A DNA stretch of 64,000 nt from contig NW_005434638.1 in assembly GCF_000315625.1 (NCBI RefSeq), positions 526,121 to 590,120 of the forward strand. The letters run 5' to 3'. The position numbers and the translations under genes were made by a program. Shown here in pieces: positions 5,403 to 52,480 of this stretch. This DNA is from Guillardia theta CCMP2712 (taxonomy: Eukaryota; Protista; Cryptophyta). The stretch's first letter is position 1, and every line of letters starts with the position of its first letter. The notes under the pieces are model-generated. The model made no database searches, had not been told where the DNA came from, and worked only from the letters and a program-made list of their open reading frames with translations.

Positions 5403-5525
5403 CCTGTCCTGACCTGACCTGACCTGACCTGTCCCGTCCTGTCCTGTCCCGTCTTGTCCTGTCCTTTCCTGTCCTGTCCTGTCCTCTCCCGTCCTGTCCT
5501 GTCCTGTCCTGACCTGACCTGTCCT
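5403..5525. repeat. (CCTGT/CCTGA)n pentamer microsatellite
   Basis: direct inspection. Confidence 0.9.
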
Positions 5526-9050: not shown

Positions 9051-9947
9051 ACTGATCCTCTGGCTGCCACGAGCCTTGAGGACCTCATAGATGGCAGCAC
9101 AAGAATCATGCTTTGTCAATGGTTGTCCCTGCAACAGTAGAGCATTGCCGGATACCAAGGCTCTGAGTCTGCTAACCGTTGAAGCTCTTGAAAGAAAGTG
9201 AGAAAGTTCAAGTCTGATTCAGCCTGATGGGTTTGCGTAACGTGAGAGGAGAGCAGAGTGTGTCAAAGCAGAACCCAAACAGGCGTCCTGATGTCATACT
9301 TGAGGCCTTCAGGCCGAACTCGGAAAATCGATCCTGGCAGAACTGTGGGAGGACAAGGACCGTCACTCGGACTGATGATGCATTGAGACTTTCAGGAAGC
9401 CTCAGGCTCGGACATCAGAATCATCCGTGACTTCAAGGCTGTTGACGAGGATCCGTTCAAAAAGAATTTCGACGCGGGGCCCTCAGCAACAAGCCTCTAG
9501 GTTGTCGCCGGATCGGATTTAAGTTACACGGCGGTGCACGCTGCGGCTCCTCTGACTTACTGAAGATCGGACTGACCGGGCCAGTAACTATGAACCACGT
9601 GCAAGCCCACTCAGTACAGGGCCGACCCGGAATGTTCAAGCCCGGGCTCGCTGGCCCGGATCACCGAGTCACGCCCGGTGGCCGCCCGGAGGGCCGGCCG
9701 AGTCCCGGACACGGTCACCACCTTTACTCAACTAGTGGACCGTTCGGTGCCCGGCGGCGGGATGATGACGGTGTCACTGAACGGGCAGCTGATGAAACGT
9801 GGCAGTCAAATTCCCGCCTGAGATTCCAAATTGTACAATCAAAATTAAAAGCTGAATTTCAGTAGCGCCAAGGTGTAATTCTAACTTTTAGAGGAGATTT
9901 TCAGCATTAAGGTTCAAATCATCCTTTGGACCGGAAATAGCGCAAAA

Positions 9948-10330
9948 ATGGTAGCCAGGAGGCGCATGGCGCTGGCCATGGTGGCGATGGTATTAGGTGA
10001 GGATGAGAGAAGAGGAGGAATTCATGATCCCTTCGTTATTATTGCTGCATTTGCTGGGGAGCTGGTTGCGTCTTGATGGTTTTACTTGTGTGGGGTATGG
10101 TGGGACTGAAATTGTTCCGGTGACGTGTCGTGGTATGTTGGAAGCAGTCTGCTGTTTGCCGGTTGCGTTGTTCACGAACTGATATATCTCTGTCTATCTC
10201 TATCTCTATCTCCATCTCCATCTCTATTCCCGCCTCCTCCTCCATTTTCCCTCTACCTCCACCCCCACCTCTACCACGATCAATTAGTTTCTGTACCTTG
10301 AGTATTATCTATCTCACTCACTCACTCACT

Positions 10331-10365
<35 letters not shown>

Positions 10366-31591: not shown

Positions 31592-32810
31592 TTGACCCCA
31601 GTGACCTGGATGACGCACGCCTGCACAATTCGATCCCATCTCCAGCGCTCTTTCAACTCGCGGGCGGACCTCCATTCCTTCCCCCCCAAGCGCTCAGTCA
31701 CTGGACGGTTGATGCAGACTTTTCCCCCTCATCTTGAGCGGCGGGCGCATCTATCCCAAGTTCAGGCAGCCCTTCTCCGGGCTCATAGCAGCTACACTGT
31801 GGAGCTCTATCCCCCCGAGTCCGCAAGTCCGCCTTCTAGTCCATTCCCCCTGGAGCCCTCCTTCGCAAGACCCAGAGCCCCCAGCGGCGATTGCAGGAGG
31901 CCACGAACAGTCATCCTTCCAACCAGTGTCCCATCCACCTCGCACGAGGAGTCGATCGCTTCCTCCATGGCCTACCTCCGGCTCGGCTGCCTCCCACCTG
32001 TGATCGTTGTGCTACAGCTCTCGACCCCTCGGCGGGAAGCAGTGTCTCGCATTTGGCCAATTGTCGTCATCGCGCAGCTCTATGGACCACCGCACATGAG
32101 CAGTGTACTGTGGTTCTTCGCGACATTTGTGTGGAAGCGGGCATTGTCACCAAGCTCCATCAACAGGGACTGCGACAAACCCGGACCCACGTCCCTCAGC
32201 ACGGCCCCACCAACAGACACATGGGCGACCTCTGGCTTCTGGACTTCACGACACCTGGAATGGGCTGGTTCTGGACTTCACGATGACACACCCCTACAAC
32301 AGCAGCGGCAGCCCCGTCGGACTTTCTGCGCTCTCCGGCCCCGCCCAACAGAAGATTTCGGATCATCGCGCCAGTTATGGCACCCATCACCCGCCGAAGG
32401 CCTTTCTTCCCTTCACTGCAGGTACGGATGGTCTTCTTCATGCTGACGCTTTGCGGTTTCTCTGGTACCTGGCGAATCACCATGGAGCTACGCTGACAGC
32501 GGAGTGGGATGGATGCGCTCAGGAGGCGGTGTATGGGGACCCTGGCTTTCATCGTTTGCGTGCTCGCCTGTTTCGGCAGACCGCTCTCGTATGGGTCTTG
32601 CCGTCCTCCTCGCAGGGGCCTTGCGCTACTGCTCTTTGTCCTGATCCTTGTTCCCATGCTTGTCGTGCATGCCGTCGCTTGCGTGGTTGGAGTAGCGGTT
32701 TTTGCTGCCTTTTTCGTTTTCTAGTCTTTTATTGAGGCGGGTTTGCAGGCTTTATCCTCCCCCTCCTTTTGTTTGCTCCGGTTTGCCCTTCTTTTTCAGT
32801 CAATCATAAA
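31592..32810 (+). mobile_element. 5'-truncated, frameshifted non-LTR retrotransposon of RLE type (CRE/R2-like)
   Basis: CDRC-x13-HLANC zinc knuckle, RHMGDLWL..GLVLDFTMTHP PD-(D/E)xK nuclease and FLPFTAGTDGLLHADALRFL, spread over different frames. Confidence 0.8.
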
Positions 32811-33017: not shown

Positions 33018-36000
33018 ATGCAAGTGCTTGGATGTTTGCGGGGAAGCGGTCGGTTGACTCGCTGCCTTGTGCATCAATACCGTTCACAAATCTTGTATGA
33101 ACCTTCCTTGCGGTCATCTGCACACTGCAAGCTTCTCAACCTTTGGGGAAAAAACATCTCATCAGATAACCAATGGATTAATTTGCAGAGACTGGATCAA
33201 GAGTACGTTGAAGCTAGAAAGGCGTTGAGAGACATTCGGAGAAAGGGGACTCGCGAAGAAATAGTGGTGGCCGAACGCGAGGTAGCTGAGATGAGGCTTG
33301 ATGCAGCCAGGGCCAGGGGGAACCCGGTCGAGATAGCAGGGGCGGAGCAGGACCTGGCCCAGGCGAGGCTTGATGCAGCCAGGGCCAGGGGGAACCCGGT
33401 CGAGATAGCAGGGGCGGAGCAGGACCTGGCCCAGGCAAAAGCCGCGACAGTAGAAGGAATGGCCCAGGCGAGGCTTGATGCAGCCAGGGCCAGGGGGGAC
33501 CCGGTCGAGATAGCAGGGGCGGAGCAGGACCTGGCCCAGGCAAAAGCCGCGACAGTAGAAGGAATGGCCCAGGCGAGGCTTGATGCAGCCAGGGCCAGGG
33601 GGAACCCGGTCGAGATAGCAGGGGCGGAGCAGGACCTGGCCCAGGCGAGGCTTGATGCAGCCAGGGCCAAGGGGAACGCGGTCGAGATAGCAGGGGCGGA
33701 GCAGGACCTGGCCCAGGCGAGGCTTGATGCAGCCAGGGCCAAGGGGGACCCGGTCGAGATAGCAGGGGCGGAGCAGGACCTGGCCCAGGCAAAAGCCGCG
33801 ACAGTAGAAGGAATGGCCCAGGCGAGGCTTGATGCAGCCAGGGCCAGGGGGAACCCGGTCGAGATAGCAGGGGCGGAGCAGGGACTCACTCAAGCACAAG
33901 ATCGAAGCCGAATTCTCCGGGCAAGCATTTCTCCTATATTTGCTTTTGAAGGCAATTACTTGGATGGAGTGTAGATGCACGGCTGATGGCTGTTTACAGG
34001 TTTACGTGCTCTTGCCAAGAAAAGTATGAAGGACCGTGCAGTTACAAATCTGAAGGAGTTCCTGCGCAATCGGCTGAGCGCAGAACAACATTTGGAGTCC
34101 GGCAATCGAACACCGACCGAGGTTTTCAGCTCATTGAATCCGATTGACAGAGTGGTGAGTATGAGTAAGACCAAGGATGAGGGTCCTTACACCTGCTTGT
34201 TGGAGGCGTGTTCAGGAAGTGGAAAATCCATGTGTGCTGCGGATTATTTTGTTCGCAACCCTGATACATGTTTGTACTTCTTGTTTGGCCACAAACATAC
34301 ACAGCTCATCTACCAGGAGGTGTCCGAGATAACAAATCTTATCAACCGTGCTTTGGACATTGACTTGTGGAATTGTATTGGGGAGTATACCTCGAACCAG
34401 GGGGAGGCTGCCGCGCTTGTTGCTATCAACATCAGTATGAAGCGAAGTCAAGGGTGGCATGTACTCGGAGTGCTGGGGTTTCTTCTGAATCAGACAGAGG
34501 AGGTTAAACCTGTCACTGTCGAACAAGCGAAGAGCTGGCAGCGGAATCTGTGGGTTTTATTAGACGAGGCCATCCCCTCACATAGAGAAGAGTGTCACAT
34601 CCTATATCCAATCGGCAGGTTGGTACTGTTGAAGCGAATCTTGCGGAATGCCAGGATACATTGTATGATGCTGGGAACGAATACTCTAATCATGAACTTT
34701 AACGACGCAGCTCAAAGATCGCCAGACAGTCGGGATGGTGAAGAGAAGCTACTCTGCGTCACACATCGAGCTCTTCCTCCTATCATTCCTCCATCGCATG
34801 ATCACTTGGCATGCCTCGAAAGGATCTTTGGGGAGAAAGAAGCCTCTGTTTTGCTGGATAATGTGAATCCATGGCTTTGCAGATTGTTCATGGTTGAAGC
34901 CATGGCAAAAGCAACTGAAAGCTATGAACCTGCCCATGCTCTACGTAAGTTTGCTTCTCCAATATTGGAGACGGTCAAGGCGGTAAAAAGTAGCTTCAGC
35001 AAAGCTTCTTTATACTGTATGTTTCAGATTGCAGCCCACGAATCTTTATCTCAGGTGCACCTGTCGACGAGCTTTGCCTTGCTAAATATTTGGCCGGGCA
35101 ACCCACCAACAAGAGGGGATGATAGCTGCATAGTAACACTGGCAAGAGAAGCATCAAACCCAGACAAGATTACTTTGAAATCTACATCACTTTATGAGAT
35201 AACGACCAGATTTGCACCAGCTCATGTTGACCCATTGACTCCGGCCATATGTGCAGGCAATGGACGGCCTTTTGGAGAGGACAAATCTGCGCTGTTAGTC
35301 TTACAGGAGATCTATAAGCAGCAGTCTTTTAAGAATGACTCAACAGCCGTGGATGCGTGGAAGCGAGATGGTGGTACGTTGGAGTCTTTTGGAGGAGTGG
35401 TCATGATGATCAGCAGTTGGTCTGAGCCTCAAGACATTCTCAAGAACATTGCTTTTCATTGTGGCAGCAAAACGGAGACGAGAAGTGTGAATGAAATCCT
35501 TGAGACGATTGCGGTCGGGAATCAATTCGAAGATTTCTTTGAGATTTTAACGTCCTGCATCCAAAATCTGCTTCCGTTTTCAGCTACAAGTTCAGGAAAA
35601 GGAAGTGCGGCTTATGGGTACTATACGCGTGCGACAGACCAGAACCAGGTTGACGCAAAGTTTCAAGGACCTGCTCATGAGACGAGAAAGAGAATGATTG
35701 GAAGGGCAGAATTCAAGAATAGGAGCACTGCTGTACCTACATCGGAGTGCCGTAACATTGTTGGCAAGCTGCTTACCCCTGAGGTCGATCTTGCTTTGTT
35801 CATGATGTCCGAGATGAAGCAAGGGAGCATTGAACAGATCGTGCAGGAGTGTAATACCGGGACAGAGGTGTTGATTTTACATCTCAGAGATAATAGTCAC
35901 TGGCGAGCTTGTATTGTTGACCAGCGCAAGGATGAAAGAGAGGCCGAAATCAGGGGTCATAGGAAAGTTTTGATGATAGTGGAAGTAGGTCTGACGACCG

Positions 36001-36056
36001 AACCGTTTTGCAGTCCTATAGCAAAGACTCCTTGGACACAGAAGGAGAGTGACTGA
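33018..36056 (+). CDS. Crinkler/CR-effector-like protein: N-terminal helical tandem repeats + P-loop NTPase + PD-(D/E)xK-like nuclease
   Basis: two same-frame ORFs joined by a predicted 48-nt GC-AG intron (33952-33999); ACSGSGKS Walker A, VLLDEA Walker B, QVDAKF..GRAEFKNR. Confidence 0.7.
33291..33893 (+). repeat. coding tandem array of 7 x 72-bp and 3 x 33-bp units (AABABAAABA)
   Basis: ARLDAARARGNPVEIAGAEQDLAQ and AKAATVEGMAQ units, almost identical at DNA level. Confidence 0.95.
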
Positions 36057-36339
36057 CATGGTACATTGATTAAAACTGACTATGATACTCTGAGATGTAA
36101 TGAGGAGGGGAGAAGGCCTTGAAGAGGGGAGGGGAGGAGGGAGAAGGGAAGGGAGGAGGGAGGAGGGATGTGAAATAGGGTTTTACCTGCTCTTCTCTCA
36201 GGTAGCAGACTGGAGAAGTCTTGGCGAAGTCGCCCAACCACCGTGACATCAGATAACCAAGGGAAGAGCCTGGACTAAACTCTACTGAGTCACGTATTGT
36301 GACTAGCCCGGCCGTTCCGAGGGCCCAGGCTAGTATGAT

Positions 36340-37011
36340 TATTATTCAACGGTTGTGACTCCCAAGGTTTTTTCCCCTTCATGGGTCCATTTACCCTCCG
36401 ACCAGCATGCAGCGAGTGTTGCCTTCATCAAGCTCGAATGTGCGGACCTGCGGAGCTTCTCGGTCGAGACGGCGGGAGTGGTGGTAGGCGGCATACCTTT
36501 GGGCTCTAGAGACTTCATCAGAAACTGGCTTCAGGAAAAGCTTGCTGCTCTTGACGATGACCTCCACAAGCTGGGATCGCTGAGTACCTTACATCCCTTT
36601 GCCTGCAAACACCTTATTCGAGCTACTCACATCCCAACCTTGCAGTATTTCTTACGGGGCATCGATCCTGAGCTCGTGACTGATGCATGCGCTGCTTTCG
36701 ACCAGAGTGTTCTCCTGGAGCTGGGCAAGGCTTTTGATTGGCCATTGCCTGACAGAGGCTCGGACGTTGACTTCGGTCTGGCCAGCTCTTCATTCTTGTC
36801 TCCCCTGGAGTTTGCCTTCTTCAAGCGTCAGCTTCCGTACCAGGAGGGGGGGGATGGGTTCACACCTCAAGCGGGGGTCAGTTTATCAGCCTATTACAGC
36901 GCCACGGCCAGCTTCTTACAATGGAGCGCTACCCTACCCTGTGTGCAGACCTGGACATTCTCCACCCCTCCCCTGTTCTCTCGCCTGGATGGTACCCTTG
37001 TTAGGGATTGA
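36340..37011 (+). mobile_element. non-LTR retrotransposon fragment (RT thumb/post-RT region, CRE-like)
   Basis: GVVVGGIPLGSRDFI, LQYFLRG, AFDQSV, QLPYQEGGDGF, SAYYSA motifs typical of RLE-type LINE ORFs. Confidence 0.7.
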
Positions 37012-37308
37012 CAATCCTGATGATGTGCTTCGACTTTGTGAATTTGAACCGTTAACAAGCAAACAGGAACCTCAACACAACCGCGCTCACTGAACGTATA
37101 GAAAGTTCGGATCCATTTTATTCGACCAAAACCTACCAAACCAACCAGACCGACCGGATAAGACAGCTCAGCGGCTAGTTGACTGAAGTATTCGTATCCG
37201 CTTACGTAACCCCTAACATACGCTCCCAAGCGCATTATCATCTGAGAAACATCTCTATGAACTTCGCTGATCATTAAGATACTGCATAACAAGAAAACGG
37301 CAGCCACC

Positions 37309-38307
37309 TCAAGTCATTTCAATTGAGTAGCGCAGAGTGCACTTTGAATGCTGAGAATCTTCGTCGGTATCCTCCGCTGACTCATCGTCGTACGAAACCA
37401 CATGATGCCTTGACCTGTCATTCCCATACGCATCGGTCGTCAAATCCATGGACTTAGCCTCTCGATACAATTCTGGCAACAAACTCCCAATACTCAAAGT
37501 CTTGTTCACATTTTGCCTCTCCAAGTCACTCAACAACTTCATGACGAAACTCGCGGTCACCTCATTGAACAAATTCTGTGCGAAATACCGTTCAAGACCA
37601 AACCTTGTGCAAGCTGTCTCGACTTGCCCTTGTCCATGATATAACAGCATGCAACAAGCAATAAAATGATTTGCTAAAGCTGAAAACCTGTTGACAAAAT
37701 CCGAAGTCTTTTCCTCTGACCCTTGTATGGTACTTTGAATCTCACCCAAAATATACTGCGAGTGCGACAACGACAAACACTCCTTCACCAGCAACGATTT
37801 GAATGATTCCCAAGTACCTTGTGTGGAAATTAATCTATCCTCGCCACGCAATGTTTGCAACCAATTCCTCACACGATTACCCTCTAATGTTGCAGCAATG
37901 TCAACCTTTTGATCTGGAGGAATTCTTTGACGCTGGAATTGAAACTCAAGCTCCCCAAACCAACTTGCAACGAAATATTCTAGAGTCACTTCTCCATCAA
38001 ATCGAGAAATATCCTTGGAATGAAATTTCACTAGGGAAGACTGCTGCTTTACATGCTGACTTGACATGTCGTTCGACATGCTCGTATTATTTTGCTTGCA
38101 TATTGCATCAGCCCCTCCTGGTTCCTTGATCGGAAGGTATTGAACTGCTCCTGATTCATTTAATCTGAACCGTTGCATCATTTCCTCGAACATTTTTTTA
38201 TTTTCTTCCCTAAGAACAGAGATTTCCTGTTTTGTCTCAACGAGCTCTCTTTCCTTACGAAACATCACTTCCTTGACGAAAGCTTCATACTTTACTTGCA
38301 TGTCCAT
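37309..38307 (-). CDS. solo Ty3/gypsy-type Gag (capsid)-like protein with N-terminal coiled coil
   Basis: ISRFDG..WFGELEFQF..KVDIAATLEGNRVRNW..TWESFKSLL..QGSEEKTSDFVNRF matches the retrotransposon gag pattern; no pol or LTR seen. Confidence 0.7.
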   Translation of the reverse strand: MDMQVKYEAFVKEVMFRKERELVETKQEISVLREENKKMFEEMMQRFRLNESGAVQYLPIKEPGGADAICKQNNTSMSNDMSSQHVKQQSSLVKFHSKDISRFDGEVTLEYFVASWFGELEFQFQRQRIPPDQKVDIAATLEGNRVRNWLQTLRGEDRLISTQGTWESFKSLLVKECLSLSHSQYILGEIQSTIQGSEEKTSDFVNRFSALANHFIACCMLLYHGQGQVETACTRFGLERYFAQNLFNEVTASFVMKLLSDLERQNVNKTLSIGSLLPELYREAKSMDLTTDAYGNDRSRHHVVSYDDESAEDTDEDSQHSKCTLRYSIEMT

Positions 38308-38363
38308 TGCGAGTTGCAATTCTTCTCGCAACCGTTCTTGTTTGCAGGAAGATTCTTGGCGCA

Positions 38364-38765
38364 ATGTGCAAGATCCAGAACAAAATAGCCAAGGCCGGCG
38401 AAAAGCACGAGATCAGCGTTCGTATCCAGAATCCAGTAAGGATTGACGTTAAGCAGACCATTACCATCAAGACCACATTCAGGTGTGCACGCACCATCCG
38501 TGCACAGAGCAACGTCTACAACTCCGAACTGCCTCCAGAAACACCCGTCGACCCCAAACCTCAACGGATCCGCATGTATTACACTCGCATTGAAGGCACG
38601 GACCACGATGGCAACCCTCTGATCACCGAGGGAAAATGGAGGCTTGAGTCGCTAGAGCGATTCTCCAAGAAAGAAAATTCCCTTGAGAGCGATTCCGGAG
38701 TGGATCTCGATGAGCTTTTTGAGACCGATCTTGATGATTCATCATCTTCGTGCGCAAAACCATGA
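38364..38765 (+). CDS. hypothetical intronless protein with acidic tail
   Basis: ATG at 38364, head-to-head with the Gag-like ORF. Confidence 0.5.
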   Translation: MCKIQNKIAKAGEKHEISVRIQNPVRIDVKQTITIKTTFRCARTIRAQSNVYNSELPPETPVDPKPQRIRMYYTRIEGTDHDGNPLITEGKWRLESLERFSKKENSLESDSGVDLDELFETDLDDSSSSCAKP

Positions 38766-38837
38766 GTTTTCGATGCAGCTTAAGAGAGCGGCTGGTGAGC
38801 AGTAGGAATAGACCACGCATGATGATTGACAACCCCA

Positions 38838-40166
38838 TCAGCCCAGCCCCACGATCACGGGCATGAGCTCCACCACCCCATTGTCCCTGTTCCACTGCAT
38901 ATTCTCCAGGTTCTTAATGAAGGGCTCGTCAAAGGAGAAGTACTCCTTGTGGAGCTCTAGGCTCTCTGTGTCCTGGTTCTCCAGCTCGAACATGCTCCCG
39001 GGGATGGTGACGACGTTGTGCTGGTGGATGTCCATGGAGATCGTGGAAACCTTCACGTTGTCCCTCCTTGATTCATAAAAGCCCCTGACGGTCCTCCTCA
39101 CCCTGGCGATGGGGTAGGAGCCCGTGGGGAAGGCGCCGCAGATGAACTGGGTGCCGAAGCCGGTGCCGTAGGACTGGTAGCCGTTGTAGTTGATCCTCGA
39201 GCCCTTGAAGAGCCATATGCCCTCGCAGGGGTGCATGGGGCAGAGGATGCCGTTGTCCACGCTCTCGGTGTTGCAAGAATGGTTGTAGACCGAGATGATG
39301 TCCATGGACGTCTTCTGGATGTCATGGAAGAGGGTCTCTGTGGTGGGGGAGGCGATGTAACACCCCGAGCTCGAGTGCTCGTGCATGTCGAGCTCCACGG
39401 GGATCTCCAGCCCGAACTCGTCTGCCACCATCTTGATGATCTTGGCCCGGGCGCGCTGGGACGCCTTCCTCAGCCAGTGGACCTCTTCGCTCTCGCAGAG
39501 CTCCGCCGTGGTGACCTTGTCGCCCATGTCGAGGATCATGTTGTAGAAATCATGGGCTGCGTAGTTCAGCCCCCCCGAGCAGACGATGTAGAGCTTGTGC
39601 TCTCGGATGTCATTGATGAAGCCTCGGGTGAAGCCGTGGTAGATGCCGATGAACTCGGGCGGCTCGTACTACCAGAACTTGGAGTCCGTGTACCTCCTGT
39701 AGTCGTTCAGGTAGGCATCCCCCTCCTCATGCACGGTGTAGGCGTTGACCGGCATGCACTGGAAGGATGCCTTGTTGTGGAGGGATTCCTGCTGGATGGT
39801 GGTGAGGACCTTCTGGATCTTCTCCTTGCAGAGCTCGATGTTGGAGAGCAGCTCGATGGCCTTCGGATTGACACCCTTGGAGCCATCGGACTCGGGGGAT
39901 ATGCACTCCGTCATGGTCAACCCGAAGAACATCTTCCTGGAGATTGGTAGGACATCGGCGGTCACCTGGGAGCCGGCGTTGAAGCGGAAGCCCTGGAACT
40001 CTCCGAGCTCGTTGATGTGGTGGGTGGGCATCACCATGATGGAGGTATGCTTGCTGGGGGTGAGGAGGGCGCGGCAGGTGTCCACCTCGTCCTTGCTCAG
40101 GGGGTAGAGCTCGTAGGATCGGTTGATACGCTCGTGCAGCTCGATGTTCTCTGAGTCCCGCGGCAT
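38838..40166 (-). pseudogene. divergent RtcB-fold protein (442 codons) with a single in-frame TAG at 39669-39671
   Basis: ORFs 39669-40166 and 38838-39539 are in the same frame, bridged by YEPPEFIGIYHGFTRGFINDIREHKLYIVCSGGLNYAAHDFYN; motif order is colinear with RtcB. Confidence 0.6.
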
Positions 40167-40284
40167 GCGTTTGAACGGCAGGGGGAGTTCATGGGTTCTT
40201 ATACCCTATGGGTCCCGCCACTATAAATTCGGCCGGCGAATCGCGGGTTTGGAAAAACTGCCACCTAGCCACACCCGCCCACGC

Positions 40285-40425
40285 TTACGGAACCCTTTCA
40301 TTTACGGACTGCCTATCTTTCCGTACACCCTCACACAGACGGTTTTAAGGAACCCCTTGCACTTACGGACAGCCTATCTTTCCGGACACCCCTACGGACC
40401 CTTTTGGAGACAAAGCTTACGGAAA
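40285..40425. repeat. two imperfect ~46-bp direct repeats (60-bp period) plus dispersed TACGG boxes in a divergent intergenic region
   Basis: 40285-40330 vs 40345-40391. Confidence 0.8.
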
Positions 40426-40435
40426 ACATACAGTG

Positions 40436-41005
40436 ATGCAGTTCCACGTCAACATCATGGGCAACATCCAGCGCCGAAACCTCGCCGAACCCCTCGACCT
40501 TCCCAACAATGCCACCCTGGAGGGCATGGAGAGGATGAGGAGGGAGATGAACCTCCGCGCCAGGGTCTTCAGGACCATGATCGACAGGAAGGCCCTCAAC
40601 GAGCCGCAGGCCTCGATTGTAGTCCAGGGCATGCTGTGTGTGGTGGCGAACTGCTCGAGGTTCCGCGTCTACCTCGCCGAGCAGACGAGGATGGCGGTCC
40701 CCTTCAAGATCATCACGACCCTCTTCAAGCGGTTCACCGTGTCCAATGAGAGCGCGAGGTGGTTCAAGACCACATGCACCAGGCTGCTGTATTCCCTTGG
40801 CAGGGATATCGACACTTGCATTGACAATGGGGATAAGCATTACCTGAGGAACTACGCCATTTCCTTCTACCGCTTTGCCGTCGCCTTTGACAAGGCAATG
40901 TTTGTCCTCAGGGATCCATGCGAGCAGTTCTTTTTCATCTACATCTTCCGCGTCATGCAGAGGGCGCACAGGAACATCACTGAGAAAGACGAGATGGGGA
41001 ACGAT
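40436..41005 (+). pseudogene. hypothetical intronless gene, 3'-truncated by junction with the opposite-strand Cys-rich fragment
   Basis: GC3-rich coding style up to ..NITEKDEMGND, after which the ORF reads as antisense of the Cys-rich gene. Confidence 0.5.
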
Positions 41006-41007
41006 TT

Positions 41008-43053
41008 CCACACATTGATTGTTCTCGTAGTAGGAGCCGTTGTTGCAGGAGTAACACATGAGCGCCGGAGTCTGGTAGTCGCCTGGAACCCTGAGCACCT
41101 CGTAGATTGTGCCATCCAAGGCGGGGATCTGGTTATAACCCACTCCTCTCAGCACCGAGATGGATTGGTAGAAAATCACCGGAGACCATATGGCAATCCT
41201 TCCTCCCCCTCCCCCTCCTCCCGAGAAAGTTACTGGTGTAAGAGGCAATCAGCACACCGCCTCCTCCATGTCCCCCAAGGTTGGTCTCCGTGCTGTAGAC
41301 GTTGCAGTCACCTCCCTGACCTCCCGGAGAACCTTGGAAGGCGTACCAGGGCCAGAGCTCCTTGGCACCGTACACAGGGCCGCCAGGAGCCGAGCCAAAG
41401 CCCCCTTGCCCTCCGAAGCCACCTCCCGACCCCCCGTAGTAGCAGAATCCTGCATAGTAGCCCGCTCCCCTGGTCTCGGAGGCTGATGCAAGATGTCTGA
41501 TGTCACCCGTGATGTTGACGAGCCCCACCGAGTAGATGGCAAAGGGATTGGATCCTCTCAGAGTGTTGGTGTCAAGCGAGAGCAGCGATTGTATGTAAAA
41601 CTCACAGGTTCCAGAGTTCCACTCCCCTGGAATGAGCTCGTGCTGGTCGATGACAAGGTAACAGTCGGAAGTGTCAATGATGAGCTCCTGCAGCGCCACC
41701 ACTCTGAAGCTCTCACCCGGGCCCACCTTTAGATCGGAGCACTGGCAGACTACCTGGCCTACCGCGGAGGTGAAGGTGTTGGTGGGACAAGGGGTGCAGG
41801 CCCCGTCTCCCTCCAATGATTTGTAGAAGGAGAGAGGGCATGGCTTGCAGACCCCGGAGTCTCGGTAGTTGCCCGGGGAGCAGACGCAAGAGGACGGGTC
41901 CGTGGCTCCTGCGAAAGAAGTTGTAGAGTTTATCCCGCAGGCCTTACACTCTAGCCCGTCCTTGTAGTATCCCTTGTCGCAAAGACAGTCGTCGATGCTG
42001 TAGGGCTTGATGTCGAAGTGGCTGTTCGCCGGGCAAGGGTATGCGCAGGGGACACACTGCCCTCCCTCCTCGCACTGCTGGCAGGAGCAGTCGTTGACGC
42101 TGGTGGACTTGGCGGGTGAAGCCTTGTTTGACGGGCACATCTGGCACTCGCCGTTGGGATCCATGTACCAGTTCGCTACACAGTAGCATGTTCTTGAATT
42201 GATATCAGAAGTCATGTGCCTACCACAGGGCCTACAGTCTAGGAACCCATTGAAATCGACGGTTCCTGCCATGCAGACACAGCCAAAGGTAGATCCTTGC
42301 AAAGGAACCAAATTGCCTGCGCAGGCTCTTGGGAAGGTGTCAAAGAACTCAGGGTATGGGTTGTAACAGACACCCTCGAATTCGAACTTATTGTCCTCAC
42401 ACCTGCACTTGATCGAGCCATAGTCGTTGGTGAATAGACCGGTGCCACATTGGGTGCAAGAGCCGAAGCCGTCATAGTCCTTGTAGTAACCCGGCTTGCA
42501 AGGGTTGCAGTCGGATGTTGTAAACCCCTCGTATCCCATTGGACAGCCACAGTCGTCGTAGCCCATGGTCTGTGGGTTGTAGGCCATGCCGTACCTTGAC
42601 GGGCATATGCATTGATCTGAGGATACGCTACCCCTGGATGATACCATGTTTGCTGGGCAAGGGGTGCAAGGCCGGTTTCCTCTCTCGGACTTGTAGTGGT
42701 TCTCGGGGCATATGAGGCATATGTTGCCATCCTTGCCGTAGAACCCTGGCTTACACTTGCAATCGAGGAAGTGGCCGCCTCGATCAGGGTTGTGGAGTTT
42801 TGAGAGCATGATATGCATTGTGTGGATCCAATGATATCCTTGTAAGTCCCAAAGCCGCAGGCACTACATGACAGGCCATCTCCAGTATATCCCTTGTTGC
42901 ACTTGCAGTTGGATGCCCCTATGCTAAGGGCGGAGGATTGGGCGTTGACGTCGCAGCTCTTGCACTTTAGATCGGTGTCTTGGTACTGCCCGGCGTTGCA
43001 GGGGAGGCAGAGGTCTGTGTAGGTCTCATAGCCCGCAAGACACTGGCAGTGTC
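41008..43053 (-). pseudogene. Cys-rich TNFR/ephrin-receptor-like (GCC2/GCC3) repeat protein with Gly-rich insert; truncated at both ends and frameshifted
   Basis: repeated C.C.PG.Y....C..CP.N...S..CxC units; GGHGGGGVLIAS..SGGGGGGGRIAI; frameshifts near 42770 and 41210. Confidence 0.8.
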
Positions 43054-43942
43054 ACTCAGTTCAAAGTGATCGTCCCCCATCTTCAACAGCACGTACATGA
43101 TCGCATTGTTGACAATCGACATCCTCTCCTTGTTCCTGCAAGCGTGACTGAAGACGCTCAATTCCTTGCTCGAGGGATGAAGTGGGTTGTCGAAAGGGAA
43201 CTGCACACGGTGGGTTCCTGGGTTCCTTTCCAAGAAAGCCTTCTTCTCCTTGCGAAACTTGATCTCCTCCTCGGAAAGATGGCTGTTCTTGCCCTTGGAC
43301 TGCTTCTTGGTGGATTTCACCTCTTCATCATCAGACTTTTCATCATCAGACTTTTCATCATCAGACTTTTCATCATCAGACTTTTCATCATCAGACTAGC
43401 CTCTTCACCATCAGCCTCTTCACCATCAGCCTCTTCACCATCAGCCTCTCACCATCAGGCTTTTCACACCAGGCCGCAAATATCTGCACCCATCTTTGAC
43501 GGGTGACCAGAGTCTGCTCCTCCTTCTTAGCCTCAAGGAAGCTGACCTTGGGCATCCCAGGCTTGCAGAAGACCTCGATGTCGGTTCCAGGGAAGTCGGC
43601 ATAGATCTCGGCCACCATCTTGTCGACATTGGCAGCCTTGAACTTGTTGCAGTTCAGGATGTCCTTGAGCTTGCCAAGGTAAGACTGACCGGTAGGGGTC
43701 AGCTTCAGGGCGTCCAGGAAAGGGTCCAAGACGGGAGTCGCCTTGATAGCGACAACGCGGGTAGCACCGGTGGGAACACTGCTGTCAAAATTTTGCACAC
43801 TGACATCATTGTTTTCACCAATGGTATTGATGCCATTCAGATCCTGGTCCGTATGCTTCGTTCCCAAAACATCAGAAGAGTTGTGCAAAACCGTCCTACC
43901 ATGTTCAGGAGTGTCAACCCTTTTTCTTGATCTCGTCTCCAT
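43054..43942 (-). pseudogene. hypothetical intronless gene with 15-bp acidic repeats (DGEEA/SDDEK), frameshifted and 3'-truncated
   Basis: METRSRKRV.. ORF continues across the repeats at 43322-43460 into VKSTKKQSKGKN.. Confidence 0.55.
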
Positions 43943-43970
43943 GATTCCAAAAAAAGTTCCAAGGAGTACG

Positions 43971-44827
43971 ATGGAGGCTGCCTTGCAGGAAGCTGCCTTG
44001 CAGGAGGCTGCCTTGCAGGAGGCTGCCTTGCAGGAGGCTGCCTTGCAGGAGGCTGAGACAGTGACGTTTCTGGACACCAGGCTGTTTCCCAGCTTCTTAA
44101 GGGCTTATGACATCTGTGTGATCTGTGGTATGCTGCTAGAGCCCAGTGACGATAGCAGGAGCCACCGCGTGCAGACCTTCTTTCACAACCTCGAGCTTAG
44201 CTGACTGAAGACCACCTTCACCTGGGAGTGCATAAGTTCGCTGTGCAAGACCTGCCACGAGGACGAGCGGCTCAGCTCCTGCTGCAGGTGCACCAACTGG
44301 TTGAGGAGGTGCAACCGCTTCCAGACCACGGAGGAGAAGCATGTGGGTAAGAAGTCTTACCTGCCTTTGGACGAGCTCATCGCCTTCTCCTTGGCACCCG
44401 GAGAGATTTCCATCCCCGACAGCAGGAATCTGAAGAGGCTGTTCAATGTACTCATGGAAAGCAGGAAGGTAAGACTGGGATCCAACTTGCTTGTGTTCAG
44501 CAACTATACCTGAGGATGAAGATGATGATCACGAGATGGTTGAGGTCGAGGGACTTTATCATTGAGGACGGTTTCGACTTGCCCAACGGCTTGAGCATCA
44601 GGTATCACACTGTCTACAACGAGGGGAGCGGTGTCATGCTATTGGAGATTCAAGCCAGGGACCTGGTCTTCGAGCAGCGACAAGAGCTTGGCAGGCCCTG
44701 CAAGAGGAAGAGTGGCCAGCAGGATGAGTTGGAAGGAGGAGGAACTCCGTCGAATGTAGAGAGTTGGGGTGCAGGAAAGGATGCTACAATGTTGAACACT
44801 TGTTCTATGATGGAGGTTGACGAGTAG
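43971..44827 (+). pseudogene. Cys-rich (zinc-binding-like) hypothetical gene with (EAALQ)5 N-terminus, interrupted by stop and frameshifts
   Basis: CVICG..CKTC..CCRCTNWLRR..LPLDELIAF..PG..PDSRNLKRL; TGA at 44202-44204. Confidence 0.5.
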
Positions 44828-45118
44828 CAGCAGAAGAGGGACAAGGATAGCTGAGGAGATGTCGCCAAACTGAAGTCCTCCTCTTTCATGGTGGGACGCG
44901 ATCGCTTTTCGTGCGGTGAAACATGCTGTAGCCCCATGATCTCAGGACTGCCTGTTCCCCACGGGTGAGCTGAGGGTAGCTCCTACATAGCTACCTCTCC
45001 TCGAGGAAGATGTAAAGTTGTCGAGTAAAGGCGCGATCATGTTCCAGTGGTTCTCATAATTCCATGACATACAAAACCGCCTCTTGCATGGCAGAGGACA
45101 GGACCTGTTGGGAAACAT

Positions 45119-46058
45119 CTACTTGAGGGTCCCGACGAGCTCATATTTGCCAGAGAAGAAGCTCTCCCAGTCGTTCAAGCTGCTTCCTCTTCAGCACCAC
45201 CGCCAGTGAACTCAACCGCCCTCACCTTGAGATCTCGCTCGGGGTGAAGTCATCAATGGAAGGATCCTTTTCATCTGCAGCATTCCCATGAGCTTTCCGA
45301 TGTGGAGATTCCTCCTTGCTTCTGCCCCCTCGTGCCTGCACTCCTTCTCCTCCTCCTCCTCCCTCCTCCTTCATCCTCCCCCTACCTCTTTCTCCTTCCT
45401 TCTTCCCTGCCCTGTCTGCGTGCTGCCGTCCCCTCGTGCCTCACGATTGTTCCCTCTTCCTTTCTCTCCTTGTACCTTCCCCCTGCCGTTCCTCCCTGCT
45501 CACCTGGCTTCACTTGTGCCTTCCCGAGCATGCGCGATGCATCTCTACCAGCAAACGCAGCGTACGGTCCCCCAGGGCCTGTGAGATCTTTTCACGACAA
45601 GCGAGAAGGGAGCATGCGACCGACCGTAGAATCCTCCTCCCTTAGTCACGTCGTACACATTTCCCTGCAGCTGCGCTCACCGTCTGCAAGATCCATCTAG
45701 AACATGACCTTGATGCCGATGAGGATGGGCTTCAATGGGTTCTGAACCAGGGAACCGCGGAGGAGAACGTTGGCGAGTCAGAATATGTGCGAAAACGATG
45801 AGAGCATGCTGTTCTCACCGAGCCATTGTACTTGAAGAGCTCGTCCTTGGTGTACGCCTTGCCCTTCACCAAGGGCTCCAGCTGCTTCTTCTTCCTCTTG
45901 TCTCTATCGTCCTCTACCTCTTTGGGTGCTAGCCACCTACGCACGAGCAAACCAACGGGATGAGATACGAAGGAGCGACTGATAAGGCAGGGTCACCTCG
46001 CAAGCAAGTAGATAGTGCATAGAGATATTGTCACAGTGATCTGCCAGGAAGGTTTCAT
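45119..46058 (-). CDS. MAPR/PGRMC-type cytochrome b5-like heme/steroid-binding membrane protein, multi-exon
   Basis: N-terminal hydrophobic helix; YTKDELFKYNGS..PILIGIK, GNVYDVTKGGGFYG, GPYAAFAGRDASRMLGK, LNDWESFFSGKYELVGTLK*. Confidence 0.9.
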
Positions 46059-47002
46059 CGTGCTTGTCAAGATAAGTTCAATTGTTGAGCCTCACCTCAG
46101 AGCCCTTGATGCTTTCCCTGAAGTGATGAAAGAGGCTGATGAAAGGCCCGAATACCATCTCCCTGCTCGTACAAGACTCAGCACATAGATCATGGCTCAT
46201 GGAAAACTCTCTGGTGTCTCGATTGCTCTCCTTAGAAACGATCTAGTGCGCTTTGTTTGTTAGTTTGTACCCCTCGATGGACGTGTTTTCAATGCTTGCC
46301 CTGTCCTACGTCAACAAACCTCAAAGATGACAGCAATGAGTGTACAAACATCATCTCATGCATACATACAAAAGAAAGGACTCTCCTCCAACCTCCTCAA
46401 CTCTGCCTCGTTCACCCTGGCCATTCCCATCTTGCGTCCTCCTCTCGCCTTCCGACATACACTCTGAAGCTCTGAAGCAGGTATGCTTTGGACCACCCTG
46501 TGATGGACTTTGGGTATCCACCCCTCCAGTTCCAAGTCCAAATTAAAATAGGGAAAATGGGTACCCCTACCCCAATACAATATCCACCCCACCCATTCTA
46601 CCCCCCCCACTCCTGATTGTCCTCGTAAATTCTACCCGACTCTGGAATAGGTCTTGTGTCCCTTATGAAGTTATCTACCACGTAAACTTTGTCACGATGA
46701 ACGGTCCGTGAAGATGTTTGCCTTGAGAAGTACAATGAGGGATTGAACGTAAGGTGGGCTTTCGGAGTTGTTGAATAGATAAGATTCCTCTTGTGAGTTA
46801 TGCGGTGCCAGGAGCTTTGTTGATGAGGAAGGGATATCTGAATGGGGAAACGACATCAGTCAGATGGGATGTTGAAGTAGAAGAGCAAGGTCAAGCTTGG
46901 ATGAGACGCGAAAAGATGAGGCGAACCGTGGGAAACCGTGCTACTCAAATCGTTGTATCTTGCTCTGGTTCCCCGCAACAAAATGTTAACTTGCTTGTAT
47001 AT

Positions 47003-48553
47003 TCACACCAGCATCTCACGGAGAATTGGGCTGCTTACTCTCTTGACAATCATGTTGAGGTGTGAAGGATACATCGTTATCTTCCACTCCGGCGTGACTT
47101 CGGGGGATTGAGGGTCGAGATCCAGATCGAAGTTCTGCACAATCGTGGCCAAGGTTGCCATCATCTCCTTCTCCGCAAAGCCCCTGCCGATGCATTGCCT
47201 GGAGCCAGAGAGGAATGGAATCCAGTGAAAGGGATGTGCTTCAGGTTTGGCAGAGCTAGCTCCAAGCCATCGCTCGGGCCAGAAGTCATCCGGTCTCTCC
47301 CAGAGATCAGGATGCCTTCCGAGGACGAAGGGAGAGAGCACGATCGTAGTGCCTTCTGGGATCTTGTAACCGGACAACACTTCCTCTCGTGTTGTTATTC
47401 TGACTGTGAGAGGAGCTGTCGGGTACATCCTGAGAGTTTCTTTCATGGTGGCGAACAGGAGTGGAAACTCCTTGTCCTGAAGCTGCCTCATCGTCGGCGA
47501 CTTTCCTTTGAGCTTCCGGAACAGTTCACCTCGGAGTTTCTCGCGGAATCCTGGATTCTTGGCCAGGAGGAAGAGAGCCCAGCTCAAAGCATTGCTAGTC
47601 GTTTCATGTCCTGCAAGCATGAAGGTCTGCACATTGTTTGCAAGCTCTGCATCGGTCAAGCCCTGACCCGATTTTGCTCGAGCCTTGATCATAAGGCTCA
47701 GTAGGTCGTCGTCGACAGCAACGCCAGCCTTGATCTGGGAGTGACGCTCCTGAACCACTCTCCTCACAGTACCGCGAAGAGTCTCAGTGGCTTTGTTTGC
47801 CTGAATGATGATGGGGAGTGGGAGATACTCGAGAATTGGAAACATCCGCAGAATGATTGTTCGAAGGCTCAGGCCCCCCATTGGCATGATATCCTGGAAG
47901 GCATCTCGGACCACAGATTTCCCTCCCTCAACCGACTGAAAGTCAAACCCGAAAGCCGAAAGTCCAATCACGTCCAAGGTAAGATGAGAGACCTCCTTCT
48001 TGATGTCCAGCACGAGGGGTTGCCCCTGGGGTTGAGATGCACAGAGGTTTTCCCACTTTTTCACAAGTTTCTCAGTGACAGAAACAAAGACGGGGTAGAT
48101 CTTGGTGATGGCTTCGAAGTGAAAGGCTTCGCTGATGATTCTCCTCTGTCGAGCATGGTCATCGCCTTCAATCACCAGCAATCCTTCTCCTGCGACCCTA
48201 CGGACCAGGGTGATCTCTCGAGTCGGTTTTGGGAATTGCCTGGGGTTGGTGACAAGGACATACTTCATATCCTCAGGATCGGTGATTAGCACCCTGAAAT
48301 TCATTCCAAAGCTTCTGTAGCAGACAATCTTGCCGTATTGTCGAGTCCAATTTAGCTCGCAGGAGCATGGGGAGCTGCCTCTCAAGGTACTGTACATTCC
48401 AAGGAAGAAGGAGGAGGCCTTGGGTCCCGGGATGGGATTGAGGATGATCGCTCTTCTTATGCACTTGTAGGCAAAGACTGAGAAGCGGAGGAGGCGGTAG
48501 CTGCCATACGCTATGGCAAGCGCGCGCACCCCTCCCCACACAGAAACCTGCAT
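47003..48553 (-). CDS. cytochrome P450 (microsomal type)
   Basis: proline-rich hinge (PIPGP), AGHETT I-helix, ETLR, PERW, FLSGSRQCIG heme motif. Confidence 0.97.
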   Translation of the reverse strand: MQVSVWGGVRALAIAYGSYRLLRFSVFAYKCIRRAIILNPIPGPKASSFFLGMYSTLRGSSPCSCELNWTRQYGKIVCYRSFGMNFRVLITDPEDMKYVLVTNPRQFPKPTREITLVRRVAGEGLLVIEGDDHARQRRIISEAFHFEAITKIYPVFVSVTEKLVKKWENLCASQPQGQPLVLDIKKEVSHLTLDVIGLSAFGFDFQSVEGGKSVVRDAFQDIMPMGGLSLRTIILRMFPILEYLPLPIIIQANKATETLRGTVRRVVQERHSQIKAGVAVDDDLLSLMIKARAKSGQGLTDAELANNVQTFMLAGHETTSNALSWALFLLAKNPGFREKLRGELFRKLKGKSPTMRQLQDKEFPLLFATMKETLRMYPTAPLTVRITTREEVLSGYKIPEGTTIVLSPFVLGRHPDLWERPDDFWPERWLGASSAKPEAHPFHWIPFLSGSRQCIGRGFAEKEMMATLATIVQNFDLDLDPQSPEVTPEWKITMYPSHLNMIVKRVSSPILREMLV

Positions 48554-49184
48554 TTGCGAGCACCAAGAACAGAGACCCTACCCCTACGTTGAAGAGACCA
48601 GAATGCTTGTATTGATTGATCACCCATCCTTTTCCCTACAATGACCCCACCTTATTCCAATCAAAACATCAACGTGTACCCCTACAAATCCTAGTGACAA
48701 CCCACGGCCCTGCCCAAGGCGGAAGGATGAACCTTCACTTTTAAAAAAGCTATTTTAACTGCCCACAGTCGCAATAGTGAGTAAATGTTTAGTCAACAGC
48801 TGAGCGCTGGGCCGGTACTACGGTACTATAGTACTATGATCGGCGCCGACAGAGTCGATGAGGGCCGAGAAGCCTTGAAGCCTTCACTGAAGCCGGCGGC
48901 CCGCCCGCGCCGCTGCCCGGCCCAGTCCGATCGGAACCGTCGTAACTTAGTACGGTAACGAGTACGGCACGGTCCGATCCGGCCCGGCCGTCACTGGCCC
49001 AGGCCCTCAGGCTGCCGCCAGTCACTCAGGGCCCCGCGGCTCACCGGGCCTTGAAGCCGCGATGATGATCTACAAGTTATCAACGAATACGTAGTTTGCC
49101 CTCAGAAGCCTGAGTTCAACTTTAGATCTTTCTTCGATCTTCAATAAACTTGAACTTTTACACAACTGAAAGAACCTCCCCATA

Positions 49185-50141
49185 AGGCCGGACGTTAGCG
49201 CAAGGGGTGCAGAATAAAATGTATTTGTTTTCCCTCACAATTTCTCAAAAACGTGGCATTAGCGGTTAGGAAAATTTGAATAATATTCCGTAACGGCTAT
49301 TTCTGGGGGAAAACAATACCTTGTTTTCCCCCAGATGAAGATGTTTTCCCGAGCACTGTTGTGAGCGTTACCGCCTGTTCAAATTGGACTTGAATGGAGA
49401 CCGTGAAAAAAAACTTGCCACCGGGCCTCGATACGCCGCTAATGCCACGTTCTTTTACTCAAAGTTAAGTTAAAAATCAGTACGAGGACAATCAGGAGAG
49501 TCGAGGAGGCTTGACCGGGCCGCTGACACTGTCGCACAGGCCAAACGGCGAGAAGAGAAAAGACAGCGAGAACCAAACCCAATCCTGCCGACTGCTGTCC
49601 CCCAAACTTAACTGATACCTTCACTTAACGGCGCGCAGGACAAGTCCCCCGCGCGGCCATGCCAGCGATGTCGCGGTGGCCGCCGCCGAAGGAATGAGAC
49701 GCATACCGGGATGCACCCGCGATGATGGCAGCGTAGGACAGGGAGGCCTTGAGCTGACGGAAGATCCTGGACCGAATGCGTTTGCAAGTCGGATCACTCG
49801 GCTCACCTGAGACGTCTTGCGAGGCCGAGAGACCATCCAGCGCTGCCGTTTCCTTGTTCCGAAGTTCGCCGAGCGATCCGCCAGCCACCACAGAAAGCGC
49901 AACGCATCGTCCTGCAAGAGGCCATCAGTGCTGGCGATGATGGGAAGAAAGGCCTTTGGCGGGACGTGCTGAGCATATGCATTACGATGCCCTCGGATCT
50001 TCCGCTGTGCTGCCGCTTGAAGTTTGCTCTCGGAGCGAGGTCCGGTATTCCATCATTGTCAGCCACGTTCTATTGTACACAGCGATTTTGAATGCCCGTG
50101 CAAAACAACCTAAATTTACCCCTTGCGCTAACGTCCGGCCT
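49185..50141. mobile_element. non-autonomous terminal-inverted-repeat (TIR) DNA transposon (MITE) with TA target-site duplication (TSD)
   Basis: perfect 24-bp TIR AGGCCGGACGTTAGCGCAAGGGGT at 49185-49208 and its reverse complement at 50118-50141, flanked by TA on both sides. Confidence 0.9.
49454..50061 (-). mobile_element. 5'-truncated RLE-type LINE nested in the MITE
   Basis: 10-bp TSD GCCACGTTCT at 49444-49453 and 50062-50071; encodes QDDALRFLWWLAD..KRIRSRIFRQ, similar to HADALRFLWYLAN..RLRARLFRQ of the 31.6-32.8 kb element. Confidence 0.85.
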
Positions 50142-50330: not shown

Positions 50331-52480
50331 GTGTTCCAGAACACGTTTCGTCGAACAAGGCGAGAGACGGGGGAGGAGCGAGCCAAGGTTGAGGTTGAGG
50401 AGGAGGCCCCACAAGCAAGTGGTCAACGGGAGGCCCACCAAGACCATTTTGTAGAGTTGGATCAGCTACACAATCATGGGAGGAGAAACCAGCTTCGCGA
50501 GAAGCAGAAGCAGCTTCCCAAGAGGAACAAGGATCCGCATCGCAAGGAGGAGGGGGAGGAGGGGGAGGAGGGGGAGGAGGGGGAGGAGGAGCTTCGCAAG
50601 AAGAGGGAGCAGCTTCACAAGGAGAAGGAGGAGGAGCTTCGCAAGAAGGAGGAGGAGCTTCGCAAGAAGGAGGAGGAGCTTCGCAAAAAGGAGAAGCTTC
50701 GCAAGAAGAGGGAGCAGCTTCGCAAGAAGAGGGAGCAGCTTCACAAGGAGAAGGAGGAGGAGCTTCGCAAAAAGGAGGAGGAGCTTCGCAAGAAGGAGAA
50801 GCTTCGCAAGAAGAGGGAGCAGCTTCGCAAGGAGAGAGAGGAGCAGCTTCGCAAAAAGGAGGAGGAGCTTCGCAAGAAGGAGGAGGCCCAGCTCCGCAAG
50901 GAGAACCTGGTTTTGAGGCAGATTCCGTCATCTGTAGAGCGAGGGATAGCTTGGGAGGAGTCAGAGGCGGGGCTTGATCGCATGGGCTTTTGCGAGCAGA
51001 GAAAGTGCTTCCGCCTCGATAGCTCGTACTTATCGATGGATGCAAGCCATGTCAGCAACCAGGAGCTTTTTCTCTACTGCCGAGAAGCCTTCACGAAGCA
51101 GCAGAGCTTCCTGAGAGAGCGAGTGCTGGAGCAAGGCGCTCTGGGCTGGATCCAAGGGCCGCCAGGTACAGGGAAGACGACTACGACGCTAGCGTTCTGC
51201 CTGTCGCTGGACATGAAAGAGTGGATGGTGACTTTTCTCAGGCTGAAGCCTGTACACATCTACTGCATGCAAGTGGTGGACGGGAGGCGAAGATTTTGCA
51301 AGATCTTGTATAGCTCTGCAGCTGAGGGGTGACGGGAGGCTTTTGCAGGGCGCGAGGGCAAGAAGCATGTGGTAGTACTAGATGGTTTCCTGAGACAGCA
51401 AGAAACTCATCAAGGCGTGTATCGGAGTGTCTGGTATGGCGTGATGCAGACCAGCAACATCGACGGCTGGCTGTCGTAACATCGATGTCATCTCGGGGGA
51501 AGGTGTACATAGAGTGGGATCAAGAAATGAAGCTTGAGACGCATAAGGTTGTTTCCTGGACGCTCGATGAGTACCTGCAGGCGGTGCAGCACGACGAGCT
51601 GTATGAGCAAGTGAAGCCCTTCTTGGAGATGGATGTGGAGGTAGGATGGATGCTAATCACGACATGGGATGGGCAAGAGACGAGAGAGGAGCGGGTCGCA
51701 AGGAAGTACTATCTCGCCGGGGGCTCATGTCGGTTCATGTTCCAGACAACCGTGGCCAATGTGAAAAAGGCATTGGACGACGCCATTGAGAGTGGTACGA
51801 ACCTGGAGACCGTCCTCCAGGGCAACGTAGGAGAGTTTTCGCCGCAAGCTATCAACCGGTTGATAGCATACGTCGAGTTTGGAAGTAAGAGAAGCTGGTT
51901 GCCAGTGAGCAAGTATGTTGCAAGTACGCTTGCGGCGCGTACTGCAGAATCGACTTTGAGGCAGTTGGCTCTTAGTTATGGCATTGGAAATCCGGGCGTG
52001 AAGGAAAGTCTTTTCGAGATGCTTTTCTTCAAGAAGATGGAAGAAACAGGGTTGAGTGTGACTTACCGTGGCCCGAGACAGACCGAGAGCTGGGATCGAT
52101 GTCTTGTGGTGAATTTCTCATCATTGCAAGGCATCAAGACGCTTCCTGCGCAAAATACGTGCTTGAGGCCCATTAGCGCGTTTCAGGGAGGATATGACGC
52201 AGTGATGGTCGACCAAGAGAAGCGGAAGGTGATGTTTGTACAAGCAACGATCGCACAGAAACACTCTTTCAAACTCTCTTTCTTCTTGAAGGCTCTGAAA
52301 GCGCTTAACATCCCGGAAGGTGGGGGGTGGAAGGTGGAGGTTGTTTTCCTGATTCCGGTTGAGGAGCTTGCAAGGTTTGAGATCAAACCCATCGAAGACA
52401 GCGGGGCGCTAAAGGATTACGAATGGAAGAGAGGAGAGGAGGAAATGCAAGCAGAAGTAGCAGGGATTTCTATCTTGTAG
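50331..52480 (+). pseudogene. second Crinkler/CR-like gene: ELRKKEE coiled-coil repeats + P-loop NTPase + PD-(D/E)xK-like nuclease, with nonsense codon and frameshift
   Basis: GPPGTGKTT; in-frame TGA at 51330-51332 followed by KHVVVLDGF (Walker B); frameshift near 51420; YLAGGSCRFMF; GGYDAVMVD..VMFVQATIAQKHSFK. Confidence 0.75.

Follow-up and report, generated by a model that had tools for sequence, protein, structure and literature searches.

A probable decayed mirusvirus fragment, marked by an RtcB-fold gene, in the nuclear genome of Guillardia theta

The cryptophyte Guillardia theta is known to hold mirusvirus genes for the major capsid protein (MCP), portal, triplex 2 and protease, its MCP falling in clade E03 (PMC10827195), and one marker of the nucleocytoviruses (nucleocytoplasmic large DNA viruses, NCLDVs) has been listed for the same species (PMC5294986 Table 1). 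An RtcB-like gene cluster (gu_c_555) is present in 63.1% of mirusvirus metagenome-assembled genomes (MAGs) against 0.06% of NCLDVs and is counted as a core gene (PMC10132985), while Snf7 is described as core in mirusviruses and absent from nucleocytoviruses, and an orthogroup with the domain PF07699 is given for 524 genomes (PMC12768974). Here we describe a block of ~6.5 kb with seven intronless open reading frames (ORFs), C to I, at positions 38333 to ~44830 of a 64,000-nt stretch of G. theta CCMP2712 (GCF_000315625.1, contig NW_005434638.1, positions 526,121 to 590,120 of the forward strand; 'the window' below). We regard it, with a probability of about 0.88, as a decayed endogenous mirusvirus fragment in the nucleus of the alga. 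A preliminary description had proposed an internally deleted endogenous viral element, possibly derived from a mirusvirus or a nucleocytovirus; this is still the best reading, and of the two lineages the RtcB-like cluster, the portal fold and Snf7 pick out the mirusviruses.

The RtcB-fold gene and its relatives

The gene that links the block to mirusviruses is gene D (Table 1), which has a 100% match in the G. theta gene model GUITHDRAFT_108947. That model (420 aa) omits the stretch holding the in-frame stop, which we read as an artefact of gene prediction. Gene D is 92% identical to an intact 451-aa environmental protein, and comparison with the relative at locus L001 shows 78 synonymous against 34 non-synonymous codon differences, the stop being one of the 34; selection therefore acted on it until fairly recently. 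At least four further G. theta gene models are 69–78% identical to gene D; in a FastTree tree of 48 selected rows, the three of these that it includes form a supported cryptophyte clade (support 1.00) with gene D and two other relatives, P0004 and P0005. Several copies as divergent as these imply either that integration was repeated or that coexistence has been long; G. theta is a cultured model alga.

A gene D profile, built from an alignment of 11 relatives, retrieves 629 representatives at E 0.001 or better. The fold was assessed on a model of one relative, P0003 (predicted local distance difference test score, pLDDT, 65), for which the top nine structural entries are all RtcB at Z 15.4–17.9 and the next entry scores 4.6. 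The best match aligns 301 residues at Z 17.9 with a root-mean-square deviation of 4.0, and Foldseek agrees; the earlier naming of the gene as RtcB-like is thus borne out on a relative's model. RtcB-fold genes of mirusviruses, which measure 1290–1344 nt (OG0000045/134/158), have the same two BFVD matches as the P0003 model (PMC12768974). For C, D, E, G, H and I no useful match came from NCBIfam, Pfam or PHROGs, IMG/VR scans with gene D, A1, G1, gag, A2 and P0195 found no relative, and the ESM Atlas offered no usable match; a sequence search of the PDB returned one match at E 0.9 for A1 and none for A2 or gag.

A metagenome scan with the gene D family confirmed 119 of 300 candidate stretches, from which 80 loci were kept. 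The contigs of these relatives are dense in ORFans, and among loci of at least 10 kb the coding density is 83–99% and 26 of 31 hold one or both of two neighbouring families, f1 and f2. Family f2 occurs in 30 and family f1 in 32 of the 77 loci in which the RtcB-like gene was called; some of these loci are redundant, and the numbers of distinct proteins are 24 and 25. Snf7 is what the representative of f1 matches (E 8.5e-12). When a model of f2 (pLDDT 57) was compared with 48,161 chains, portal or neck entries filled 50 of the 50 rows listed, with a best Z of 10.0, and f2 has 10 BFVD matches with an E of at most 0.001, most of those that carry a name being portals. Such a Z is modest for a helical protein, yet the uniform list of portal and neck entries makes the predicted portal fold convincing. 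Since it is the combination of RtcB fold, portal fold and Snf7 that marks mirusviruses, the company kept by the relatives of gene D argues for a mirusvirus origin; to our knowledge, nucleocytoviruses lack a portal fold.

Among 129 further neighbour proteins eight have a Pfam match, including heliorhodopsin and RING. A scan of 185,579 prokaryote genomes yielded a single locus, on a MAG contig of 57,858 nt (G001:C3; L095–L099) that carries the same gene cluster (RtcB-like, portal-fold) together with heliorhodopsin and shows no bacterial housekeeping match among its 51 proteins; although filed in a bacterial MAG (GTDB), it is likely a mis-binned mirusvirus contig. No Pfam match to a nucleocytovirus core gene (double jelly-roll capsid, A32 ATPase, PolB or another) was found in the block itself or among the 28, 129 and 51 proteins of the relatives' contigs. 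Eight ORFan families (f3–f7, f9, f10 and f12) recur near the RtcB-like gene, in 8–18 loci each (L004–L078), with no Pfam or PHROG match.

The active site of the family was mapped by anchoring motifs, in E. coli numbering, for 87 homologues of 380–530 aa and nine true RtcBs. D75, C78, H185 and H337, which we take to be the conserved metal ligands and nucleophile of E. coli RtcB, are invariant in 9/9 true RtcBs. In the family, hydrophobic or small residues predominate at these positions: the D75 position is F in 73/87, the C78 position is T, H, V or I, the H185 position is V or C in 70/87, and the H337 position is F or Y in 75/87 and H in 3/87; the H281 position is His in 38/87. The profile alignment of the family to RtcB is not significant (E 0.057) and N167/H168 cannot be placed, which weakens the argument, but we consider it probable that the RtcB-like family has lost its ligase activity. 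A different chemistry is possible, because the family keeps other polar residues (H58, D170, H186, H199, E237, R247 and D269). Our best guess for the gene D product, from gene neighbourhood and expression, is a catalytically dead RtcB fold serving in virion morphogenesis; mean expression has been given as 1.71 for the RtcB-like cluster, 2.23 for triplex 1, 0.41 for the portal and 0.08 for the terminase (PMC10132985).

Decay and integration of the block

The block had been drawn as ~8 kb (37010..44830) in the preliminary description. It is real and integrated, but its left 1.3 kb, a long terminal repeat (LTR) and a gag gene, are not part of it. Six-frame translation reproduces the eight intronless ORFs (37309–44827, including the gag-like ORF) and the distances between facing ATGs, 56 nt at 38307/38364 and 28 nt at 43942/43971, and ORFs cover 94% of the bases between 38333 and 44827. 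However, because 36999–38332 is a gag-LTR retroelement, the 56-bp gap, put forward as a head-to-head viral spacer, is a junction and not a viral promoter. Homology to the retroelement ends at 38332, where loose ends are seen in runs X1, X2 and X6 (38331–38332), so the retroelement is cut there and the virus-derived element is taken to start at 38333. The right border is uncertain (44510 to ~45100), and minus-strand RNA reads at a depth of ~1 start in the bin of ORF I. The absence of microsatellite introns had been noted among the features of the block. Pure purine or pyrimidine tracts of at least 20 nt are indeed scarce in it, with a share of 0.4% that compares with 5.3% and 3.2% in the flanks, but this alone is not diagnostic because a stretch of 7.7 kb at 5352–13091 is also tract-free. 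The only tandem arrays within 36169–45340 are two coding 15-mers, and an Rfam scan of 30000–50500 returned nothing real.

Table 1. Features of the block and its immediate flanks (positions in the window)
Feature	Position	Strand	Basis or remark
LTR of multi-copy retroelement, 220 bp	36999..37218	-	8-bp inverted ends, AATAAA signal, poly(A) site 37101
gag-like ORF, 332 aa	37309..38307	-	Retrotrans_gag E 0.001, below Pfam cut-off
Left junction, retroelement/virus-derived DNA	38332..38333		copies' matches end here; presumed viral start
ORF C, 133-aa ORFan, possibly 5'-truncated	38364..38765	+	cluster of 2 members; no family match
Gene D, RtcB-fold mirusvirus marker gene, stop-broken	38838..40166	-	homology, fold of relative, stop 39669-39671
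D/E divergent spacer	40167..40435		38-nt direct repeat, 40293-40330 and 40354-40391
Gene E, first 191 codons of 460-aa ORFan, deletion-cut	40436..41008	+	51% identity to P0195
Gene F, inner part of a large gene with Cys-rich, ephrin-receptor-like repeats	41009..43052	-	truncated on either side; two frameshifts
Gene G, ORFan with 15-mer acidic repeat	43053..43942	-	frameshifted, 3'-truncated at F joint
Gene H, Cys-rich ORFan with 15-mer repeat	43971..44510	+	stop 44202-44204
ORF I, 103-aa singleton	44516..44827	+	cluster of 1 member
Flanking spliced host gene	45122..45950	-	six coding pieces, different frames, several end at GT donors

The lesions reported at first sight are all present. In-frame stops break genes D (at codon 166) and H, and frameshifts lie near 42760, at ~41230 and in the 15-mer repeat at 43395–43445. 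At the second of these, a paralogue of gene F on a 24,450-nt contig of run X1 has 169 letters where the window has 8 (41227–41236). Both abrupt gene fusions, placed near 41005 and 43053, are seen as well. The joint at 41008/41009 is exact: the homology of gene E to the 460-aa protein P0195 stops at residue 191 (nt 41008), where the antisense fragment of gene F starts, and the paralogue on the 24,450-nt contig matches from 41027 and reaches far past both ends of F in the window. At 43052/43053, the match of another F paralogue ends at 43049. Run X1 is a DNA run from another study than runs X2–X5, and its zero-difference contigs 39454–43353 and 44026–45334 reproduce the lesions (the repeat at 43354–43419 lies outside the contigs listed); the lesions are real, not sequencing errors.

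The block is chromosomal and single-copy. The zero-difference contigs of X1 (38303–39246, 39454–43353, 43420–44021, 44026–45334 and 45400–49214) have depths of 66–82 compared with 66 for the host flank, and contig 44026–45334 runs from genes H and I into the spliced host gene. We envisage that a mirusvirus genome integrated in the G. theta nucleus and then decayed by deletions, frameshifts and nonsense changes, and that the E–F and F–G fusions go back to large deletions, two or more in number, which would have brought together parts of a once longer viral genome. The left end adjoins a gag-LTR retroelement, whose 5' part would have been lost in another deletion. No virion or replication gene has been identified, and the block is unable to make particles itself.

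Relatives are also found in the environment. In X7, a freshwater metagenome, depths are 88–145 for the contigs that match D, F, G and H at no less than 80%, whereas pieces matching the right host flank have depths of 6.5–7.5; a free virus would give such depths, but so would an alga that carries integrated copies and is more abundant. G and H are both matched by a single X7 contig, of depth 127.8.

A number of observations weigh against a mirusvirus origin or make it less direct. In keeping with the preliminary description, no capsid, portal, terminase or other hallmark gene was identified in the block, although no search was aimed at MCP, triplex or terminase; the f2 (portal) profile has no match in 36000–45500, as expected for a deleted fragment. 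The linkage to portals and Snf7 is that of distant relatives (at 31–49% identity in the case of the portal), and no portal-linked locus falls in the cryptophyte clade of the tree. That gene D is a mirusvirus-specific core gene is inferred from fold, size and matches, by which, rather than by sequence comparison, it is equated with the published cluster. The GC content (0.549) and CpG observed/expected ratio (0.66) of the block are those of the host, and composition gives no signal. A nucleocytovirus or some other large DNA virus carrying an RtcB-like gene could have left an element in which no hallmark gene is identified, and one NCLDV marker is on record for G. theta (PMC5294986), but the RtcB-like cluster is next to absent from NCLDVs (0.06%; PMC10132985) and the relatives of gene D are linked to a portal fold and Snf7, which leaves such a source very unlikely.

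The block could also be a mosaic in which only D and E are virus-derived, the remaining ORFs (C and F to I) having come from the host or from mobile elements and been brought together by rearrangement. No informative protein homologue ties C, G, H and I to viruses, retroelement pieces flank the block, and an F paralogue lies on a 16-kb contig (16,235 nt, depth 83) of run X6, which is guessed to be RNA; it may be transcribed, and F-like genes may be host genes. On the other hand, all ORFs are intronless, tightly packed and 94% coding, PF07699 genes are common in mirusviruses (PMC12768974) and one stands beside a gene D relative in locus L058, and G and H occur together on an environmental contig, all of which makes a mosaic unlikely. 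Nor are the best matches intron-containing, expressed, syntenic eukaryotic genes, the outcome that would have spoken for host origin: in the environmental relatives examined the genes have no introns, and the contigs around them are virus-like. In 6% of a raw RNA run (X21) the depth of the block is 0–0.18 over nine bins, consistent with a block that looks silent, but the test is weak, as neighbouring host genes reach only 0.3–1.1. Finally, the block might be contamination, or a free virus or episome wrongly joined to host sequence, since it is not covered from end to end by any one contig or read and just 30 letters (contig 38303–39246) bridge the left joint. This is extremely unlikely because the lesions recur, at the depth of the host, in a DNA run from another study, one contig of which leads from gene H into a spliced host gene. 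A decayed mirusvirus fragment thus remains our reading of the block.

Remaining genes and flanks

Gene E matches GUITHDRAFT_108948. Contigs of 5903 nt and of 7635 nt occur both among those with D relatives and among those with E relatives, which suggests a conserved D–E pair, and the spacer between the two genes is a possible promoter region. Assignment of gene E to the portal family was tried and rejected (E 0.91). ORF C would be viral by its position. Gene F had been described as a Cys-rich repeat protein with a Gly-rich insert: the Cys repeats are well supported (PF07699, E 1e-18 in Pfam), but the Gly-rich stretch is native to the family and no insert, because the paralogue shares it (41236–41570 aligns). 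The F paralogue on the 16-kb contig is intronless in its matched part and may be a giant Cys-rich gene that came from a virus and is expressed. For gene G (G1) no protein homologue was found among 86 candidates of 130–415 aa, and zinc binding by gene H, proposed from its Cys pattern, was not confirmed (0 Pfam matches).

The retroelement to the left shows a TG...CA terminal repeat, a poly(A) site, gag and multiple copies; the window contains no second LTR, primer site or pol. The two 8-mers at the LTR ends occur nowhere else in the window. DNA depth is ~800 over the LTR against 66 for single-copy sequence, and 323–448 over the gag ORF (~five to seven times single-copy). Polyadenylation at 37101 is seen in 110 reads, and RNA reads over gag carry the letters of other copies (for example 143/143 at 37335), so it is other copies that are expressed. 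With gag followed directly by the LTR, and other copies strongly expressed and polyadenylated, this is possibly a gag-only, non-autonomous LTR family. The LTR cuts a multi-copy ORF fragment (36334–36998, depth ~410) that has no Pfam match and is presumably similar to the sequence that follows a non-LTR reverse transcriptase.

To the right, the spliced host gene is, we assume from its motif, of the MAPR/cytochrome b5 type; one exon gave no Pfam match. An intronless cytochrome P450 gene (E 1e-87) lies at 47003–48553, and one run X6 contig covers it whole. Two further intronless ORFs, 34026–36056 (676 aa) and 51326–52480 (384 aa), have no Pfam match, the first with a P-loop-like motif and about two copies; we take their resemblance to Crinklers as provisional. 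Very high-copy repeats at 32151–32801 and 49077–49727 have summed depths of 6,352 and 60,920 versus 66, with many loose ends at 49453–49454.

Comparison with described systems

By itself the locus is an ordinary case of decay in a known kind of element, since earlier work has reported capsid genes of mirusviruses from G. theta. No published account of this locus, or of a lost RtcB site, turned up in a literature search, although supplements outside that search may cover the locus; nothing on the locus was found in PMC12220804, PMC12606086 or 10.1101/2025.04.19.649669. It is possible, if doubtful, that the RtcB-like core gene is a dead enzyme turned virion-assembly protein in a portal/RtcB-like/Snf7 cassette and that the block fingerprints a still-circulating mirusvirus lineage of Guillardia-like cryptophytes. 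What the locus does offer is a way to recognise mirusvirus relics that lack capsid markers, through their RtcB-fold gene.

A close likeness is to the endogenous cryptophyte mirusvirus regions of clade E03, which share with the block the host species, an ORF-dense region in a host scaffold and many decaying markers (PMC10827195). Those regions were found by capsid-module markers, whereas none is identified in the present block, which screens for capsid markers would probably miss. AurliV-2 of Aurantiochytrium is likewise chromosomal mirusvirus DNA in a protist, but it is expressed and its proteins are detectable (PMC12606086), while the present block is a 6.5-kb deleted relic. With RtcB ligases (E. 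coli RtcB, human RTCB) the gene D family has the fold in common, at Z 15–18 over ~300 residues; identity is 8–12%, however, and the metal ligands and guanylylated His of the ligases appear not to be conserved. The mirusvirus 'RtcB-like RNA-splicing ligase' has the same fold matches, ~430–450 aa and no Pfam match, and its published label comes from fold alone (PMC10132985, PMC12768974). In the family described here, by contrast, four catalytic positions appear to have been substituted, and portal and Snf7 genes are frequent neighbours of the gene; if it does encode a pseudo-enzyme, the label of 'RNA-splicing ligase' needs revision, and the mirusvirus assembly module gains one more candidate.

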